Counted from the stretch's first letter, positions 35,824 through 57,768 are shown. The stretch: 64,000 nt of DNA from Asaia bogorensis (GCA_945901855.1 CAMDLT010000013.1:3421-67420); one strand, 5' to 3'. Notes: generated from the sequence alone by a model not told the origin. Numbers and translations: made by a program.

Positions 35824-35922
35824 TTTGTTCGCTCCCCCAACAAGCTTTGATTCGAAGTTTGACGTACCAAACGACTTCAGTCAACGCTAACATGTCAGTC
35901 AGTTGAGAAACAGGAGTTGGAA

Positions 35923-36939
35923 ATGGCCGCAATCCCCTTGCGCACGCTCGGCAAAAGCGGTCTTGGCGTGTCGGCGCTGGGTTTCGGCAGCGCGCCGCTC
36001 GGCGAAATATACGCGCGCATCGACGAGCGCCAGGCGCAAGAGGCGGTTGCCGCAGCCCTCGTCGGCGGCATGACGCTGCTCGACAGTTCGCCGCTCTACG
36101 GCCACGGGCTCGCCGAACATCGTATCGGTGCTGCCTTGCGCCTGGCGCCGACGATCGCGCCGGTCATCTGCACCAAGGTCGGTCGCACCGTCGATCCGTT
36201 TGCCGCGCGCGGGGGCGAAAGCGGATTTGTGGGCGGCCTGTCGCACGCGCTGCGCTTCGACTATTCGTACGACGGCGCGATGCGTTCGATCGAGCAGTCG
36301 CTGCTGCGTCTGGGCGTGGATCGGCTCGATATCGTGCTGATCCACGATGTCGACGTGTGGACGCACGGCGCCGACGCGATCGACCGGCGCTTTGCCGAGG
36401 CCGTCGCGGGCGCCTACAAAGCGCTCGACCGGCTGCGCACCGACAAGACGATCGCGGCCGTCGGCGTGGGCGTCAACGAGGCCGACATGTGCGTGCGCTT
36501 CGCGCAAGCGTGCGATATCGATTGCGTTCTACTGGCAGGCCGCTACACGCTGCTGGAACAGCCCGCCGCCGCAGAATTTCTGCCACTCGCCCTAAAACGC
36601 AACATCGGCGTCATGCTGGGCGGCGTTTTCAATTCGGGCATCCTTGCCACCGGCGCTGTCGCTGGCGCCAAATACAATTACAAACCTGCCCCGCCGGACA
36701 TCCTGGCCAGGGTCGCCAAAATCGACGCGATCTGCAAACGCCGCGACGTCAAACTGTTCGATGCGGCGCTGCATTTTGCGTTGGCCCATCCTGCGGTGTC
36801 GAGCGTGGTGCTCGGCGCCGTGTCGGCGCATGAAGTGGCCGCCCAGATCGACAGTATGGGCGCCACGATCCCGCCCGATCTTTGGCGCGATCTCAAAGCG
36901 GCCGGATTGCTTGCGAGCGACGCGCCGGTGCCGACATGA
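35923..36939 (+). CDS. aldo/keto reductase (probable aldose / 6-deoxy-aldose 1-dehydrogenase)
   Basis: MAAIPLRTLGKSGLGVSALGFGSAPLG AKR N-terminus, LDSSPLYGHG, IVLIHDVD. CAGGAG RBS upstream. Confidence 0.85.
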   Translation: MAAIPLRTLGKSGLGVSALGFGSAPLGEIYARIDERQAQEAVAAALVGGMTLLDSSPLYGHGLAEHRIGAALRLAPTIAPVICTKVGRTVDPFAARGGESGFVGGLSHALRFDYSYDGAMRSIEQSLLRLGVDRLDIVLIHDVDVWTHGADAIDRRFAEAVAGAYKALDRLRTDKTIAAVGVGVNEADMCVRFAQACDIDCVLLAGRYTLLEQPAAAEFLPLALKRNIGVMLGGVFNSGILATGAVAGAKYNYKPAPPDILARVAKIDAICKRRDVKLFDAALHFALAHPAVSSVVLGAVSAHEVAAQIDSMGATIPPDLWRDLKAAGLLASDAPVPT

Positions 36940-37760
36940 GCACGCCGCGCATCGACGCTCACCAGCATTATTGGCGCCTGGATCGCGGCGATTACGGGTG
37001 GCTCACGCCCGAACTCGTCGCCATCTATCGCGATTTTGGACCGGCCGACCTCGCACCGGCACTCAAACGAAACGCGATCGCGCGCACCATTCTGGTCCAA
37101 GCCGCGCCCACGCTTGCCGAAACCGACTATCTTCTTGCACTCGCGGCCGAAAATCCGACCATTGCGGGCGTCGTGGGCTGGTGCGACTTTGCCGCCGCAG
37201 CGCAAGTCGAAGCGCTCGCGCACAACCGCCTGCTCGTCGGCCTGCGCCCGATGGTGCAGGACATCGACGACGACGATTGGCTTCTGAATGCCGATCTCGA
37301 TGCCGCGTTTCGCGCGCTCGAATTGCATAACATTGTGTTCGACGCGCTCGTCCTGCCGCGCCATTTGTCGCGTTTGCTCGTTCTGGCGGACCGCTACCCT
37401 GCCCTTGCCATCGTCGTCGACCACGCGGCAAAGCCCCATCTGCGCGAACGGCGTTTCGAGCCGTGGCGCAGCGACATGGCCGCGCTTGCCAAACGTCCCA
37501 ACGTGGTCTGCAAATTCTCCGGCTTGGCGAGCGAGATGGGCGCAGCCTGGACGCTCGACGATCTAGCACCCGTCGCCGACCATTTGCTCGCGACGTTCGG
37601 CGAGGCGCGTCTTTTGTGGGGCAGCGACTGGCCGGTCCTCGAACTTGCCGGCGGCTACGATCGCTGGTTCGAGGCCGCGCAAAAGCTGGTCGGAAGCTCC
37701 GACGCGATTTTTGGCGCCAACGCGAGGCGCGTCTATCTCGAAAAAAGAGGAAGGTTCTAG
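36936..37760 (+). CDS. amidohydrolase_2 (TIM-barrel metal-dependent hydrolase) family protein, probable aldonolactonase
   Basis: MSTPRIDAHQHYW (HxH metal motif at the N-terminus), DHAAKP, WGSDWP. ATGA overlap with the AKR gene. Confidence 0.8.
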   Translation: MSTPRIDAHQHYWRLDRGDYGWLTPELVAIYRDFGPADLAPALKRNAIARTILVQAAPTLAETDYLLALAAENPTIAGVVGWCDFAAAAQVEALAHNRLLVGLRPMVQDIDDDDWLLNADLDAAFRALELHNIVFDALVLPRHLSRLLVLADRYPALAIVVDHAAKPHLRERRFEPWRSDMAALAKRPNVVCKFSGLASEMGAAWTLDDLAPVADHLLATFGEARLLWGSDWPVLELAGGYDRWFEAAQKLVGSSDAIFGANARRVYLEKRGRF

Positions 37761-37762
37761 AC

Positions 37763-38212
37763 ATGCTCATATCCGTCGATCCAGTGCTGACGCCCGACTT
37801 GCTGTGGATCCTTGCGTCGATGGGACACGGCGACGATCTGGCGCTCGTCGATGCGAACCACCCGGCCGAGCGCATCGCGGCGGCAACGATATCCAAACGT
37901 CTTGTGCGTCTGCCCGGATTGACGATGGAACGCGCCGCGCGCGCGATCCTTTCGGTCTTGCCGCTCGACACTTACGTGCCCGATCCTGCGCGACGCATGG
38001 AAGTTATCGGCGACACCGCAACGGTGCCCGCCGTGCAACAAGCGGTGCAAGCCGAAATCGACCGCGTCAGCGCGGGCCCGCAGCCCCTTGTCGGCGTCGA
38101 GCGCTTCGCATTCTACGATGCGGCAAAGGCCGCATTCGCGGTCGTGCAAGTCGGCGATGCGCGCCTTTACGGCTGCTTCTTGTTCCGCAAAGGCGTGATC
38201 GCGGGCGAGTAA
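37763..38212 (+). CDS. fucU: L-fucose mutarotase (RbsD/FucU family)
   Basis: 149 aa MLISVDPVLTPDLLWILASMGHGDDLALVDANHPA...RFAFYDAAKAAFAVVQVGDARLYGCFLFRKGVI, closely matching the FucU pattern (MGHGDEI..D..FP; RFAFYERAQKAFAIV..GE...YGNILLKKGV). AAGAGG RBS. Confidence 0.75.
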   Translation: MLISVDPVLTPDLLWILASMGHGDDLALVDANHPAERIAAATISKRLVRLPGLTMERAARAILSVLPLDTYVPDPARRMEVIGDTATVPAVQQAVQAEIDRVSAGPQPLVGVERFAFYDAAKAAFAVVQVGDARLYGCFLFRKGVIAGE

Positions 38213-38291: not shown

Positions 38292-41200
38292 TCACGCCCG
38301 CGCTTGCGGGTGCGTCGCACGCACCAGCGCTGCCGCCAACTCGGCAGCACGCACCGGCTTGGAAACATAATCGTTCATGCCCGCCGCCAGATACATCTCG
38401 CGGTCGCCGGACATCGCATTGGCGGTCAGCGCGACGATCGGCACCTGGCCGAAGGGCACCGGCAGCAGACGGATCTGGCGCGTTGCCTCGTCGCCGTCCA
38501 TCTCGGGCATCTGCGCGTCCATCAAGATCGCGTCGAAACGCTTGGCGCTGGCGCGGGCGACCGCCTGCACGCCGTTCGAAACAAATTCGTGGCGATGGCC
38601 CATGCGCGCCAGCATTTCGCCGACGACCATGCGATTGACCTCGTTGTCCTCGGCAACCAGCAGGTCGAGCGAGATGCTTGCGGCAGGCACAATCGGCGCC
38701 TGCGCGGCTTCGGGCGCAAGCGGCACCAAAGCGCCGAGCGGGATCGCAAAGCGGAAGGTCGAGCCCACCCCTTCCACGGACTCGACGCTCAAATCCCCGT
38801 CCATTAGACGGGCAAGTTCGCGCGATATCGCAAGGCCAAGCCCCGTGCCGCCGAAGCGCCGCGCGATGCTCTCGTCGGCTTGGCTGAAACGCTCGAACAG
38901 CCGGTCCAGCGCATCCGGCGCGATGCCGATGCCGGTATCCACGACCGAAAACACCACCCCGGCAGCGCCCGACGCGCACCGCCCCGTCGCCAGCGCGACA
39001 TTGACGCTGCCCGTTTGCGTGAATTTGATCGCGTTGCCGAGGAGGTTGAGCAGCACTTGGCGCGCGCGGGTTGCATCCACCGCCAATGCGCGCGGAACGT
39101 CCGGCGCCGCGCTTGCGGTCAGCCTCAATCCCTTTTTATCAGCCGTTGCCGACATCAGCGCTACCGCTTCGTCGATCAGATCTACCGGATCGACGATCCC
39201 GCGTTCGAGCCGCATTTCGCCCGACTCAAGTTTGGAATAGTCGAGAATGTCGTCGATGATGGTCAGCAACGCCGTCACCGAACGCTCGACCACCGCGACG
39301 TAGCCGCGTTGGCGCTCATCGAGTTCGGTGCCCGCCAGCAACTCGGCCATGCCCAGCACGCCGTTCATCGGCGTGCGAATTTCGTGGCTCATCGTCGCCA
39401 AGAAACGCGTCTTGGATTGATTTGCCCCCTCTGCCGCATCCTTGGCCGCGGCCAGATCGTTTGCGATGCGGCGCTCGTTTGTGACGTCGCGGTAGAGCGA
39501 GACGATCGAACCGTCCGGCCCGCGCGATTCGAGCACTTCGATCGTCGCGCCGTTGGTATCGACAAAAGCGAACCGCCCCGTGGGCGCTTGGCGGCGCGCC
39601 AGACGCTGGTGCAGATACGCCTCGCGTTCCGACGCCGTCACATGCGCCATGTCGACCGCAAGTTTGGCCGCCAGCACGTCGGCATAGCGCGCACCGGGCA
39701 CAAGCGACACTTGGGCGGTGGCCTCAAACAGTTCGCGGACCTTGCGATTGGTTGCGACGATGCGATCCTCGGCATCGCACAGCAAAAATCTTTGGCCATC
39801 GAATCGAGCCCGCTGTCGAGCGTGGCGCGCGCAAACTCGGCTTCGCGCCGCAGACGTTCGATGTCGCTCAGATCCAAAAGAGTCCCGAAGACGCGAACCA
39901 GTTCGCCCGACGGCCGCCGCTCGACCAAATAGTCTTCGCGCAAATGGCGGATCGAGCCGTCCGGCGCGACGATGCGATAGCTGCAATTGCCCCGGCCTGC
40001 AGGGCACAGGGTCAGATCGGGCCGCATCGCGCGGTCTTCCGGGTGCAAAAGCTGCCGGAAGCCATCGTCGCCTGCGCGAGTCGCCGGATCGACGCCGCAA
40101 ATCGCGCGCGTGCGCTCCGACGAGACCTGTATTCCCGATGCAGCGTCGAATTCCCACCACCCCAACGAACTGGTCTCCATCGCCAGTTCCAGGCGCGCGC
40201 GAACGTCTTCCAAGCCTGCCAGCAAATCCGCCTGCACGCCGTTCGACAATCTCAAGTTTTTTTCGGCTTTGATTTGCAGGGTGATGTCGCGGTCCGCGCC
40301 GCGATAGCCCCGAAACTGCCCGGATTCGTCGAAGATCGGCTTGCCCGATCGCGCGACCCAGATCGAGGCGCGGTCGGGCAACACTATGTGGACAATACGA
40401 TCCCGAAAACGCTCATGCCGACGCATGGTTTCGCCAAGCGTCGGTTCGCTGCCGTCAACCCCGTTTTTGGTGTCCCAGCCGCCCGGATGCTTGCCCATGC
40501 GCCAGGCCGGATCGACCCCGAGCGAACGGAACGAATCCGACACGTACGAAAAACGATGCGCGGAGTCGGTTTCCCAGACCCAGCCGGAGACAATTTCGGA
40601 GAAATCTGCAAAACGTTCGCGCTCGTCGGCCAGCGCGTCCATCGCGGTCAGGCGCTCGTCGGCCGTGCGCACCAACTCGCCGTGTTGGCGCGCTTGCACG
40701 CGTGCCGTTTGCCAAACCACCGCCAACAAGGCCGTGTAAAGTCCGAAAATCAGGACCGATATCCCGTATTCAAAAACGAGCAAACTGTCGTGGATGGTCT
40801 TGCTCGTCTGCGATACGTCGAAGCAAATCTCAAAAATTGCCTCGACGCGACCGTCCGATGCGCGGATCGGCGCGTAGCTGGCAACGATTTTGTCGAATCG
40901 ACGAGGTCCATCGAAACTGTTGATCAAGCGATCCACGTAGAGCGCGGTCGCAACGCGGCCTTCCAACGCGGATTGCAGGGCATTGAGGTTCGACAAACGG
41001 CGTCCCAGATCGGTCGCGACAGGCGCGTAAATCGTGCGCCCGGCAAGATCGAAAATCTTGATCGCAACAATGTCGGTTTCGCGCGCGAAGCGTCGCATCA
41101 TCGGCGCCACCGTCGCAATTTCGGGGCGTTCGGCCAGAGCTTGGTCGGATAAATTTTCAACCCCGATCGCAATGGCGCGAATCTGGGGCCAGATCGTTTG

Positions 41201-41380
41201 GGAAAGCGCGGTTGCAATCGTTTCGCCGGCCGCTCTGCCATACTCGGTCGTCGCCGCGTCGAACTGACGGTGTTTGATCTCGATTGCGACAACGATGGCG
41301 ATCAACGTCGCGACCAGTCCCGCAACCGCGAACGGCGCAAAGAACCTGACGCGCAGCAAACGATCTTGATTTTGCATCAA
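38292..41380 (-). pseudogene. hybrid sensor histidine kinase / response regulator (TM sensor domain, PAS, PAS, HisKA, HATPase_c, REC), interrupted by a -1/+1 frameshift near 39790-39810
   Basis: ORF 39638..41380 carries a TM-flanked periplasmic sensor and a PAS domain. ORF 38292..40160, in another frame, carries a PAS domain (FLLCDAEDRIVATN), the H-box SHEIRTPMNGVLGMAELL, the HATPase G-boxes and a REC domain (LLVAEDNEVNRMV...ILMDAQMPEMDG). The two frames join at the homopolymer CAAAAATCTTTGG (39791). Confidence 0.6.
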
Positions 41381-41399
41381 TAATGGAACTCACGCGACA

Positions 41400-41670
41400 A
41401 GGTAAAGTCGGTCGAAATTTTTTCGCGGCGAAGCTAGCCCTAATATCTCCTGCCCGCAATCGGTCAAACCACAAAATTAGACATTGGGTTAAAAATCTAT
41501 GTTCTTGATAATACCCTCTTAAAATGCTTCACTTTGGCCATCGTCCTGTCCGGACGTTTGCTGTTTGAAAAGTGAATATCGTACCGATTTCCGATTTTGT
41601 CGGCGAGGCGACATGCGTTTAAAATCAAATACATAAATAGGTAACTGTCGCCTCTCGTCGCCTAGAGTCG
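41400..41670. promoter_or_regulatory. 270-bp AT-rich intergenic island upstream of the sensor kinase, with phased repeats
   Basis: Roughly 40% GC versus the 65-70% background. Contains palindrome CGAAATTTTTTCG (41401-13), three TTAAAAT motifs, tandem CCGATTT x2, and three GTCGCCT copies at exact 10-bp spacing (41647, 41657, 41667). Confidence 0.4.
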
Positions 41671-41671
41671 C

Positions 41672-41968
41672 CTATTTCGCATCGAGCAATGTCTGGACGA
41701 TCACGGTCCATTCGACATCCAACGAGCCCGAGGCTTCCGGCTTGTTTGCCCGCTTATACCAGTAGCGTGCATTCGACGCATCGCCTTCGACGCGGTGGAG
41801 ATAGGCATGCACCCAATCGTGCTGCGCATCGCCCTCTTGCTGCTGGGCCAATTCGTGCGCTTGGTTCCACGCGCCGTTTGCCGCATGCCACAGCGCGGCA
41901 AGCGGGCGCGAGATGTCCTCGGGCGGTTGGGGTTGGGCCAGAGACTGGCGAAAGGCTTCGAGCTTCAT
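41672..41968 (-). CDS. hypothetical small protein (98 aa)
   Basis: Compact ORF with a protein-like composition (MKLEAFRQSLAQPQPPEDISRPLAALWHAANGAWNQAHELAQ...WVHAYLHRVEGDASNARYWYKRANKP). No other gene explains the region. Confidence 0.45.
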   Translation of the reverse strand: MKLEAFRQSLAQPQPPEDISRPLAALWHAANGAWNQAHELAQQQEGDAQHDWVHAYLHRVEGDASNARYWYKRANKPEASGSLDVEWTVIVQTLLDAK

Positions 41969-56408: not shown

Positions 56409-57620
56409 TCAATCGACCATCGTATCGACCAGCATCCGCTGAAAATGATGGACGTTCTTTTCCCAGACCGGCGAGAAAACGACTTTGTCGGCGACTGGCG
56501 AACGGCGTGCGATCTGCTGCTGTTCCCAGATTTTCATGTCCTGGCTGCGGATGCCGCCGTAGTCGCGCATAATTCCCGTTTCGCCGAGCCAGCGCGCCAA
56601 GGTCTTTTTGCGCTGTTCGGCGAACTCAGGAGCTGTCGCCGCATCGCCGACGAAAAAATAACCCATCTTCGAGACCGTTCGGTCCGCCGCGATCGGATCG
56701 GCAATCACTGACGCAAGATGGTCGGACTGCAGCGTCAGCGTCATATTCGGAAACACGACGCTCGTACAGCGCACGCGCTTGCGACCTTCAGCGTATGGAA
56801 TTAAAGGCAATTGGCCTGCCGCCGGATAGAAATCTTGGTCGCCCCGGCGCTTCAATGTGACGACCGTGCCAAGCGGAATGGGCTCCGCAAGAGGTTGGCC
56901 CGTTGCAAGATCGAGATCGTCCGACATCTTTGTGAAGACGTTTTTATGCACCCATATATGATGGTACGTCTCCCAATTGTCGTTCTGCATTTTCCAATTT
57001 GCATTCCACGCCCAATCTTCGCGGTGCCCGATGCGGGTCGCTCCCAAATCGGCACCGTCGATCAATTGCTCGAGAGGGCGAATATGCTCGGCGAACTGGG
57101 CCGCATTGGAATCGAGATTGATAAAAATCCAATGGTGCCAAATCGCCGTCCGAACCGGGATCAAGCCCAACGCGGCAAGATCCAAACTGCCCGACCGATT
57201 GCCCTCCTTCGTGCCGTCGAAATAGGGCGTGGATTTCAAACGGCCGTCCAAATCGTAGGCCCATGCATGATAAGGACAGGCAAATTGCTTCAGATTCGAG
57301 CATGGTTCCGTCACCATCATCGCCGCGCGATGGCGACAGACGTTGTGGAAAACTCAGATCGACCCGGCTGCATCGCGAACCAGGATTAATGGAATTCCTG
57401 CGGCCATGAGGGGGATTGCGTCCCCTACCTTCGGCACGTCGCTGGCAAAGGCCAAGCACATCCATGTGCGCGCAAACAGTTTTTGCTGTTCCAGTCGGAA
57501 AAAATCGCCGTCCGTGTAGGCTAATCCTGGAAGGCCGCAAGATTGCTCGATCGGTTTGCGGATTGAGTCGATAGCGTTTTGACCGAGGATGTTTTCGATG
57601 GTGTGCAGCATCTTCGACAT
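56409..57620 (-). pseudogene. Rieske [2Fe-2S] non-heme-iron oxygenase alpha subunit, interrupted by an in-frame TGA (codon 57352-57354)
   Basis: ORFs 57354..57620 and 56409..57320 are in the same frame. The reverse complement across the gap reads GSI-TGA-VFHNVCRHRAAMMVTEPCSNLKQFACPYHAWAY. This is the intact Rieske CxH...CxxH motif with a stop where Arg (CGA) is expected. The C-terminal part has the mononuclear-iron catalytic domain (WETYHHIWVH). Confidence 0.6.
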
Positions 57621-57768
57621 AACGCCTCCTTTCGGCTCTCAGAAGAATGTATGCCAAATCTGTACCATTCGAAAGACAACGGCGGTGATTACGGTGGCCC
57701 GTATTTTGCTCTCACTATGAAACCGGAGACGCCCACACCTGCCTCCGGCTTTCGTCCGAGGAAAATGC

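Follow-up and report, generated by a model that had tools for sequence, protein, structure and literature searches.

An AT-rich island upstream of a hybrid histidine kinase gene as a probable copy of a dispersed, structured noncoding element

An AT-rich island between a small open reading frame and a kinase gene

The DNA considered here is a 64,000-nucleotide stretch assigned to Asaia bogorensis (GCA_945901855.1 CAMDLT010000013.1:3421-67420; hereafter the window, with positions counted from its first letter). It forms part of a 223-kb metagenome contig (ENA ERZ27280227, k141_1968847) of an uncultured alphaproteobacterium. Our subject is a conserved noncoding element that makes up most of an AT-rich island at positions 41,400 to 41,670 and that we also identified at other loci. 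The island lies within a spacer (41381-41671; GC content 0.44) that is bounded by the stop codon of an open reading frame (ORF) of 98 amino acids (aa) and by the ATG of a sensor kinase gene (41377), both on the minus strand. A preliminary description of the window had placed the island between these two genes and called it the only strongly AT-rich stretch. Both statements hold: it is the lowest-GC 270-bp stretch in the 64 kb, with a minimum of 0.41 against a mean of 0.63 (standard deviation 0.04). The two other moderately low-GC spots (1160-1520 and 57450-57720, at 0.48-0.50) look by eye like ordinary intergenic spacers and bear no likeness to the element.

The genes neighbouring the island encode a dehydrogenase, a thioredoxin, DsbD and the kinase, a hybrid histidine kinase that is rich in PAS domains and carries a receiver domain of its own. 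The order of dehydrogenase, small ORF, spacer and kinase is kept in related loci whose small ORF is 95% (L006-L009) or 76% (L013-L015) identical to that of the window. No response-regulator or transcription-factor gene flanks the kinase, which we therefore consider an orphan hybrid kinase.

Three copies of GTCGCCT lie on the plus strand of the island (41647, 41657 and 41667) at a spacing of exactly 10 bp, as the preliminary description had it. The heptamer is not itself rare (18 copies in the 64 kb, with 12 expected), and the clustering is the unusual part: four exact copies, counted in either orientation, fall inside 68 bp. GTCGCCT is also the sole 7-mer in the window with three repeats at a period of 9-12 bp, and any such 7-mer triple arose in only 1 of 300 windows simulated with a Markov-1 model. 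Two features had escaped the earlier reading. Inverted copies accompany the direct ones (an exact AGGCGAC at 41606-41612 and a degenerate AGGTAAC at 41639-41645), and the stop codon of the small ORF sits in the third plus-strand GTCGCCT repeat.

The remaining motifs of that reading were retained in part. Three TTAAAAT elements had been reported, of which two are present, the third site being TTAAAAA. The two (41519-41525 and 41619-41625) are the only copies in the 64 kb and lie exactly 100 bp apart, the former in the 3' block of the element and the latter in the loop region of its P4 hairpin (Table 1); the window-wide count is not above chance. The palindrome CGAAATTTTTTCG (41413-41425) does have CGAAA and TTTCG arms around TTT, but it is not kept in a relative with 95% identity. 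The tandem CCGATTT (41584-41597) is likewise real, but degenerate or absent in relatives.

One element at three unrelated loci

Between the window and L013, sequence identity is 72-74% across 41487-41678 and 39% in the adjoining 105 bp on the kinase side, compared with 57-70% at third codon positions in the flanking genes. Because of this pattern, we regard the distal two thirds of the island, and not its kinase-proximal part, as the conserved object. This element measures ~190 nt in the window and 200-250 nt elsewhere, and an nhmmer profile built on it matches five further loci (L019, L020, L024, L027 and L044) at E values of 1e-52 to 1e-75. Together with the window, L006 and L013, these loci make up the alignment of eight sequences (A5) to which the counts below refer. 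Along the sense strand, which is that of the small ORF and the kinase, the element runs from three GGNNAC-type units at 10-nt spacing through two inverted GTNNCC units, a hairpin with a UUGA loop and a 22-nt core to a variable hairpin (Table 1). In every case it abuts the stop codon of a same-strand gene, and in the window, L006 and L019 the TAG of an AATAGG motif is the stop codon of the upstream ORF. At L013, the small ORF instead reads on through all three direct units and ends at a TGA inside S3, which gives its product an extended C-terminus. The profile search returned no second copy of the element in the 64-kb window.

Table 1. Features of the spacer and its flanking small ORF, in window coordinates
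Feature	Position	Strand	Remarks
98-aa ORF	41672-41968	minus	no Pfam family; stop codon supplied by the element
Whole conserved noncoding element	41487-41678	minus	delimited by alignment A1 and nhmmer profile
S1, first AGGCGAC unit	41667-41673	minus	extended form AAATAGGCGAC holds the TAG stop of the small ORF
S2, second AGGCGAC unit	41657-41663	minus	10 nt from S1; GCGAC invariant in 8/8 sequences
S3, third AGGCGAC unit	41647-41653	minus	10 nt from S2; GAGGCGACA/TGTCGCCTC is a perfect 9-nt complement with I2
I1, inverted unit	41639-41645	minus	GTTACCT in the window, GTCGCCT or GTCACCT in relatives
P4 hairpin	41613-41634	minus	invariant TTGA in the loop, from TTGATTT (41622-41628)
I2, second inverted unit	41606-41612	minus	GTCGCCT on minus, AGGCGAC on plus; covaries with S1
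Tandem AAATCGG, two copies	41584-41597	minus	CCGATTT on plus; replaced in L019-type copies
22-nt core	41559-41580	minus	GATATTCACTTTTCAAACAGCA; most conserved part of the element
H3 hairpin	41542-41556	minus	directly 3' of the core; stem sequence differs by lineage
3' block	41487-41541	minus	GAAGCATTTTAAG...ATTATCAAGAACA.AG.T.TTT; conserved only in window-type copies (window, L006, L013)
Poorly conserved kinase-side spacer	41381-41486	minus	39% identity to L013; holds the CGAAA-TTT-TTTCG palindrome (41413-41425)

An exact scan for the core through one genome per species (185,579 species) returned a single genome, the metagenome-assembled genome (MAG) Rhodospirillaceae D4_MAG_00038, in which the core occurs twice on different contigs (L019 and L020). 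Both loci align with the window across the whole element, including the three phased units, the two inverted units and the core. At L019, crtB and then a predicted ORF of 57 aa precede the element, and a convergent crtC-like ORF, named from its own sequence and without a Pfam hit, lies with its 3' end towards it. At L020 it follows a LysE-family gene, and a convergent gene of ~240 aa ends ~60 nt beyond the element, followed by asd. A metagenome scan added two copies at the LysE locus (L024 and L027), and a further look-up brought in L044, which the exact scan had missed because of a single difference in its core. The element is found at three unrelated loci in all (small ORF/kinase, crtB/crtC and LysE/asd), and in at least two contexts, crtB/crtC (L019) and LysE/GMC oxidoreductase (L024), it lies between convergent genes. 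L024 (3814-5445) differs from L020 and L027 in that a GMC-oxidoreductase gene is inserted between the element and the asd-side genes, and the region 3' of the element has thus been rearranged in this lineage.

The LysE locus also provides sites that lack the element. The clade with LysE identity of at least 86% (L020, L024, L027 and L044) has a spacer of ~260-300 bp that contains it. In L038-L043 (LysE identity 67-76%), the LysE gene and the convergent gene overlap by CTAG or, in L043, are separated by a 24-nt spacer, and in L045 (82%) a different gene starts 10 nt downstream; the element is absent from all of these. This distribution across relatives shows that the element at the LysE locus was gained by insertion and is not ancestral. 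The preliminary description had raised the possibility that the island's low GC marks horizontally acquired DNA, and to this extent the suggestion stands. Small size, noncoding character, unrelated loci and presence/absence polymorphism (the empty LysE sites) are all traits of miniature inverted-repeat transposable elements (MITEs).

The element is similarly independent of the small ORF, since small-ORF homologues at 60-64% identity occur in other contexts, with downstream spacers of 0-30 nt and no element. The small-ORF family as a whole comprises 296 homologues at E ≤ 1e-3 without a Pfam domain, spread over many gene contexts in Alphaproteobacteria and some Gammaproteobacteria; homologues carry the labels of Tagaea, Azospirillum or Telmatospirillum MAGs.

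Variation within the species is seen at the 3' side of the element. Three short same-species contigs, L003 (944-993), L004 (727-776) and L005 (628-666), match the window without a difference as far as the 3' arm of H3. At that point L005 ends, and L003 and L004 continue into a different sequence, TGTGCAGGGAC, that is not found elsewhere in the window. This divergence may represent a structural variant or an insertion point right after H3.

Phased units and their inverted partners

The 10-nt phase of the direct units is kept in all eight sequences (Table 2). No unit consensus is common to the copies or to the units within a copy; every inverted unit has a complementary direct partner.

Table 2. 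Direct (S1-S3) and inverted (I1, I2) units in the copies of the element, sense strand
Copy	S1	S2	S3	I1	I2
Window	GGCGAC	GGCGAC	GGCGAC	GTTACC	GTCGCC
L006	GGCGAC	GGCGAC	GGCGAC	GTCGCC	GTCACC
L013	GGCGAC	TGCGAC	GGTGAC	GTCACC	GTCGCC
L019, L020, L024, L027	GGTTAC	CGCGAC	GGCAAC	GTCGCC	GTAACC
L044	GGTTGC	CGCGAC	GGCAAC	GTCGCC	GTAACC

The helix between S1 and I2 is paired in 47 of 48 cells of the alignment. Two of its columns have changed on both sides (C-G to U-A and G-C to U-A), and L044 has one G.U pair. Its covariation score exceeds that of 500 out of 500 shuffles, and controls in which the arms were slid are 26-47% paired. An alternative helix between extended forms of S1 and I1 (S1ext/I1ext; AAAUAGGNNAC/GUNNCCUAUUU) is paired in 88.6% of cells. 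Further pairings appear in particular copies: at L013, S3 and I1 form a perfect 10-1-10 palindrome (AATAGGTGAC-G-GTCACCTATT), and in L019-type copies S2 is complementary to I1 (GTCGC) and an I2/S4 helix is well formed. In these L019-type copies a GGTTAC-type arm and ~30 extra nt stand in place of the tandem AAATCGG. Both the S1ext/I1ext and the I2/S4 helices contain several U.G pairs, which would be A.C if read on the other strand.

The P4 and H3 hairpins keep their positions and change their stem sequences between lineages. Stems of P4, taken from alignments A4 and A5 and from folds, are AUGU/GCAU in the window, UAUGUGC/GCACAUA in L013 and GCGCG/CGCGC in L020. Those of H3 are CGTCC/GGACG in the window and CGCCC/GGGCG in L013, with further stems in L019, L020, L027 and L044. 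The left domain of the element folds at -22 to -42 kcal/mol, with a z-score of -4.65 for L013. A stem formed by S1ext/I1ext or S3ext/I1ext directly 3' of the stop codon has a predicted free energy of -10 to -21 kcal/mol in seven of the eight copies, and its loop measures ~21 nt when S1 is the 5' arm. A U-rich tract (ATTTATGTATTTGATTTT) follows I1, with 9 of 15 nucleotides being U in the tail of the window type and 5-6 of 15 elsewhere. These patterns of sequence change point to the repeats as pairing arms in RNA or single-stranded DNA, with the sense strand more likely. We also considered a long-range helix between a CTGTTTA..TTGATTT segment and the core, which is 69% paired against 30-50% in slid controls and shows no covariation, and did not adopt it.

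The preliminary description had instead read the phased repeats as sites for cooperative binding of a regulator that controls the kinase. OmpR/PhoB-type regulators typically have direct repeats with a spacing of 10-11 bp as their sites, and the present array resembles their operators (pho boxes) in having 7-bp direct repeats on one helix face, with an exact 10-bp phasing that is kept in every copy. The island is also upstream of the kinase. An operator for a response regulator or nucleoid protein at the kinase promoter, composed of the heptamers and their inverted copies, nevertheless seems quite unlikely to us. The array occurs at loci without the kinase, and in L019 and L024 it lies between convergent genes and hence has no downstream same-strand gene. 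Unlike the sites of OmpR/PhoB arrays, the units differ in sequence within and between copies, follow their complement and not a consensus, covary with inverted partners and, in L013, are part of the small-ORF coding region. In the window, ~270-290 bp separate the array from the kinase start, and the 105 bp on the kinase side of this interval are unconserved. The kinase itself is a hybrid with its own receiver, and no gene for a DNA-binding regulator is adjacent. Because the element abuts the stop codon of a same-strand gene and lies between convergent genes in at least two contexts, we conclude that it is very unlikely to be a kinase operator.

As for the kinase gene (38292-41377, minus strand), it is broken in the window into two overlapping ORFs (39638-41380 and 38292-40160) by a 1-nt deletion at 39794 relative to L006 (GGCC-AAAG versus GGCCGAAGG). 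Relatives encode the kinase as a single protein of 1023-1028 aa, and the frame break marks a pseudogene or else stems from faulty assembly. Facing the 3' end of the kinase gene are convergent genes (35917-38212, plus strand) for an aldo/keto reductase, an amidohydrolase and an RbsD/FucU-like protein.

We interpret the island as mostly one copy of an undescribed, low-copy, dispersed, structured noncoding element that occurs in freshwater Rhodospirillaceae-like bacteria and is probably the 3' untranslated region (UTR) or terminator of the gene upstream; we would put the probability of this interpretation at roughly 0.55. The phased heptamers would serve as alternative 5' arms, S1 pairing with I2 or I1 and S2 or S3 pairing with I1, and the arms and inverted units together would build a strongly structured domain of ~100 nt. 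Transcription as the 3' UTR of the same-strand upstream gene seems most likely, because the element starts at the upstream stop codon and then continues into a U-rich tract. The S1/I1-type hairpin and the U-rich tract presumably act as a terminator, an exonuclease barrier or both, and the core and H3 may have an additional, sequence-specific role. In the window it would act as an insulator between the small ORF and the kinase, whose promoter would fall within the 105 bp of poorly conserved spacer on the kinase side. That spacer contains a weak sigma-70-like candidate read by eye, TTGACC-N16-TATTAG (-35 at 41462-41467, -10 at 41440-41445), for which a consensus scan gave no call. Since the element reached at least one locus by insertion, we place it with RIME/ERIC/MITE-like intergenic repeats and not with locus-specific regulatory regions.

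Several observations weigh against this interpretation. The alignment represents about four independent lineages, and the S1/I2 covariation is essentially a single evolutionary event that affected two positions. The window (-0.3), L019 (+0.25) and L027 (-0.3) have unremarkable fold z-scores, minimum-free-energy folds differ between copies, and H3 of L006 has a C.A mismatch on the sense strand that is U.G on the antisense strand. The consensus scan called no canonical short-loop terminator on the minus strand. With regard to dispersal, the element ends show no terminal inverted repeats and the LysE junctions no target-site duplication, and there are only two exact-core copies in the one genome matched and one in the 64-kb window. 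Finally, a role as terminator or 3' UTR gives no reason for the near-invariance of the 22-nt core.

The conserved core and alternative roles of the element

The core (GATATTCACNTNTCAAACAGCA) is identical at 20 of 22 positions in seven full-length copies, and L044 differs at one of those 20. It is conserved as well as, or better than, flanking protein-coding sequence, and at up to three mismatches it is matched once in the 64-kb window. Its two variable positions fall in one codon (NTN) in one frame, which would be compatible with a hidden small protein gene; ORFs do exist in the window, of 45 aa and 31 aa on the minus strand and of 23 aa on the plus strand. Pfam searches with two island ORFs gave no match. 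The 45-aa frame has stop codons in L006, and the 31-aa frame lacks a start in L020 and is interrupted by a stop in L027. A 1-nt indel separates L019 from L020, and L025 has a stop two codons before the core. Readings in all six frames were rejected on account of stops, missing starts or frame shifts, with every candidate frame broken in at least one copy, and we consider a coding function highly improbable.

The metagenome scan identified four contigs, L021, L025 and L028 (69-72% GC) and L026 (49% GC), that share the core alone with the element and in which it is joined to unrelated REP-like hairpins. Going by base composition, we estimate that a chance match of such an AT-rich 20-mer in 70%-GC DNA is very unlikely. 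In the soil-metagenome contigs L028 (5029-5247), L021 (3679-3760) and L025 (3852-3935), the core stands beside a shared REP-like hairpin (GTAGCCCGGATGAG...CATCCGGG), and in L028 a diverged core (CATATTCACCTGTCAACCAACGA) and an exact core flank a cluster of these hairpins. Other matches were set aside: two AT-rich metagenome matches (L022 and L023) were judged chance-like, and a 22-nt match in Indioceanicola, from a blastn comparison with a plasmid collection, lies inside an apparent coding sequence (desaturase-like by eye, in an unannotated region). A literature search for the core sequence returned only unrelated primers. Compared by eye, CtrA, DnaA, IHF, FNR/FixK, parS, matS, pho box, nod box and LexA boxes did not fit the core in both spacing and sequence.

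A near-invariant segment between stems that vary is the usual pattern of a small RNA (sRNA) seed, and the preliminary description had already mentioned a small RNA as a possibility. The copies could be paralogous sRNA genes, or could give rise to 3'-UTR-derived sRNAs, in which the left domain would be a scaffold, the core a single-stranded seed and H3 part of the 3' end. The occurrence of multiple copies in one genome is consistent with this proposal, as are a UUUU after H3 in L044 and the strand-specific G.U pairs, which favour the sense strand. Compensatory and G.U changes in the helices lend partial support to the RNA part of the earlier suggestion, but no promoter/terminator pair that would define an independent sRNA was found. 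A scan and manual reading of the alignments revealed no conserved sigma-70-like promoter within or upstream of the element on either strand, and H3 lacks a U tract in the window, L013, L019, L020 and L027. In the window, the predicted fold places part of the core in a paired region, and no site complementary to the core was found in the 64 kb. Searches of Rfam 15 gave no match in the element at E values up to 10 for the window and up to 1 for seven related loci. On this balance we regard sRNA genes as possible but doubtful.

Related searches of the window were also negative. There was no Rfam match at gathering score anywhere in the window, and a scan for tRNA and tmRNA found none. Among candidate promoters, the sole sigma-70-like scan call (plus strand, 41597-41625) is not kept in L013, and no sigma-54, EcfG, sigma-32, RpoE or SigF-like motif read by eye on alignments A1, A2 and A4 is conserved.

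A broader proposal, which we likewise entertain only tentatively, is that the element belongs to a so far unrecognised class of structured noncoding RNA, which may be mobile in the manner of 'cuckoo' sRNAs. The core GAUAUUCACNUNUCAAACAGCA would then be a seed for trans-regulation or a site for an RNA- or DNA-binding protein, common to freshwater Rhodospirillaceae and to unrelated high-GC soil bacteria that carry different hairpin modules. The arms could in that case form a switch between two states, S1-I1 plus I2-S4 and S1-I2 plus S2-I1.

The combination of repeats and core also invites comparison with DNA-level sites. Phage attP and attL sites combine direct repeats in phase and inverted copies with an AT-rich spacer and a conserved core that is not palindromic, and the layout of the element, with its three phased repeats and conserved asymmetric core, resembles them. 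The element could accordingly be an att-like or transposon-end-like site with arm repeats and a 22-bp core, or the core could be a DNA-binding protein site carried by a repeat. The point of variation just 3' of the core and H3, after which L003 and L004 diverge from the window, fits such a site, as does the joining of the core to unrelated REP-like hairpins in high-GC soil contigs, with two core-like copies flanking the cluster in L028. In contrast to phage attachment sites, the element has no integrase or transposase gene beside it at any of the three loci, and relatives keep the gene order on both of its flanks. The RNA-like compensatory and G.U changes of the repeats would not be expected under a protein-site model, and a scan of phage (viral) contigs gave chance-like matches only (two identical low-GC matches). 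We therefore judge a DNA-level site to be unlikely.

For the dispersed-repeat interpretation that we prefer, the closest kinds of element are the alphaproteobacterial intergenic repeats and the transcribed palindromic repeats of the ERIC, REP/BIME and Correia types. ERIC/IRU, REP/BIME and Correia repeats are ORF-less imperfect palindromes located 3' of genes or within operons. The transcript of the upstream gene includes them, and they influence its termination or the stability of the mRNA; some of them provide stop codons, and their cores are conserved across genera. Like REP, BIME, RIME and ERIC repeats, the element is intergenic, 3' of a gene, sense-oriented and an imperfect palindrome. Repeats of these types occur in tens to hundreds of copies per genome, and the element differs from ERIC, REP and Correia repeats in its apparently far lower copy number and in showing neither terminal inverted repeats nor target-site duplications. 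It is also asymmetric, proceeding from a structured domain through a non-palindromic core to a variable hairpin.

Among alphaproteobacteria, the RIMEs and the Sm-repeats (AB-C palindromes) of Sinorhizobium are, like the element, dispersed noncoding intergenic repeats of ~100-200 bp. Such rhizobial repeats share conserved primary sequence and secondary structure (PMC2573895). Differences from these repeats are apparent in sequence: a blastn comparison of the window, L019, L025 and L026 versions with a plasmid collection that includes rhizobial and Azospirillum replicons gave chance matches only. By the title of Osteras et al. 1995, a reference given in PMC2573895, RIMEs were reportedly first described inside a two-component system locus. 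The element also differs in its apparently low copy number, with two exact-core copies in one genome. To our knowledge, RIMEs have neither three arms phased at 10 nt nor a non-palindromic core of 22 nt.

An island that resembles a textbook operator array has practical consequences, in that the operator interpretation would point experimenters to the wrong experiment. If a dispersed element instead accounts for the phased repeats, as arms of its stems, a search for the kinase promoter should turn to the 105 bp closest to that gene. The element represents a previously uncatalogued conserved noncoding family of uncultured freshwater alphaproteobacteria, with no match in Rfam or in plasmid and phage collections. 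If its core proves not to be an sRNA seed or a protein recognition site, the element would simply join the other intergenic repeats, and its use would be chiefly in annotation and in marking strains. If the core does have such a role, it would add a regulatory or mobile RNA family to a poorly studied clade.

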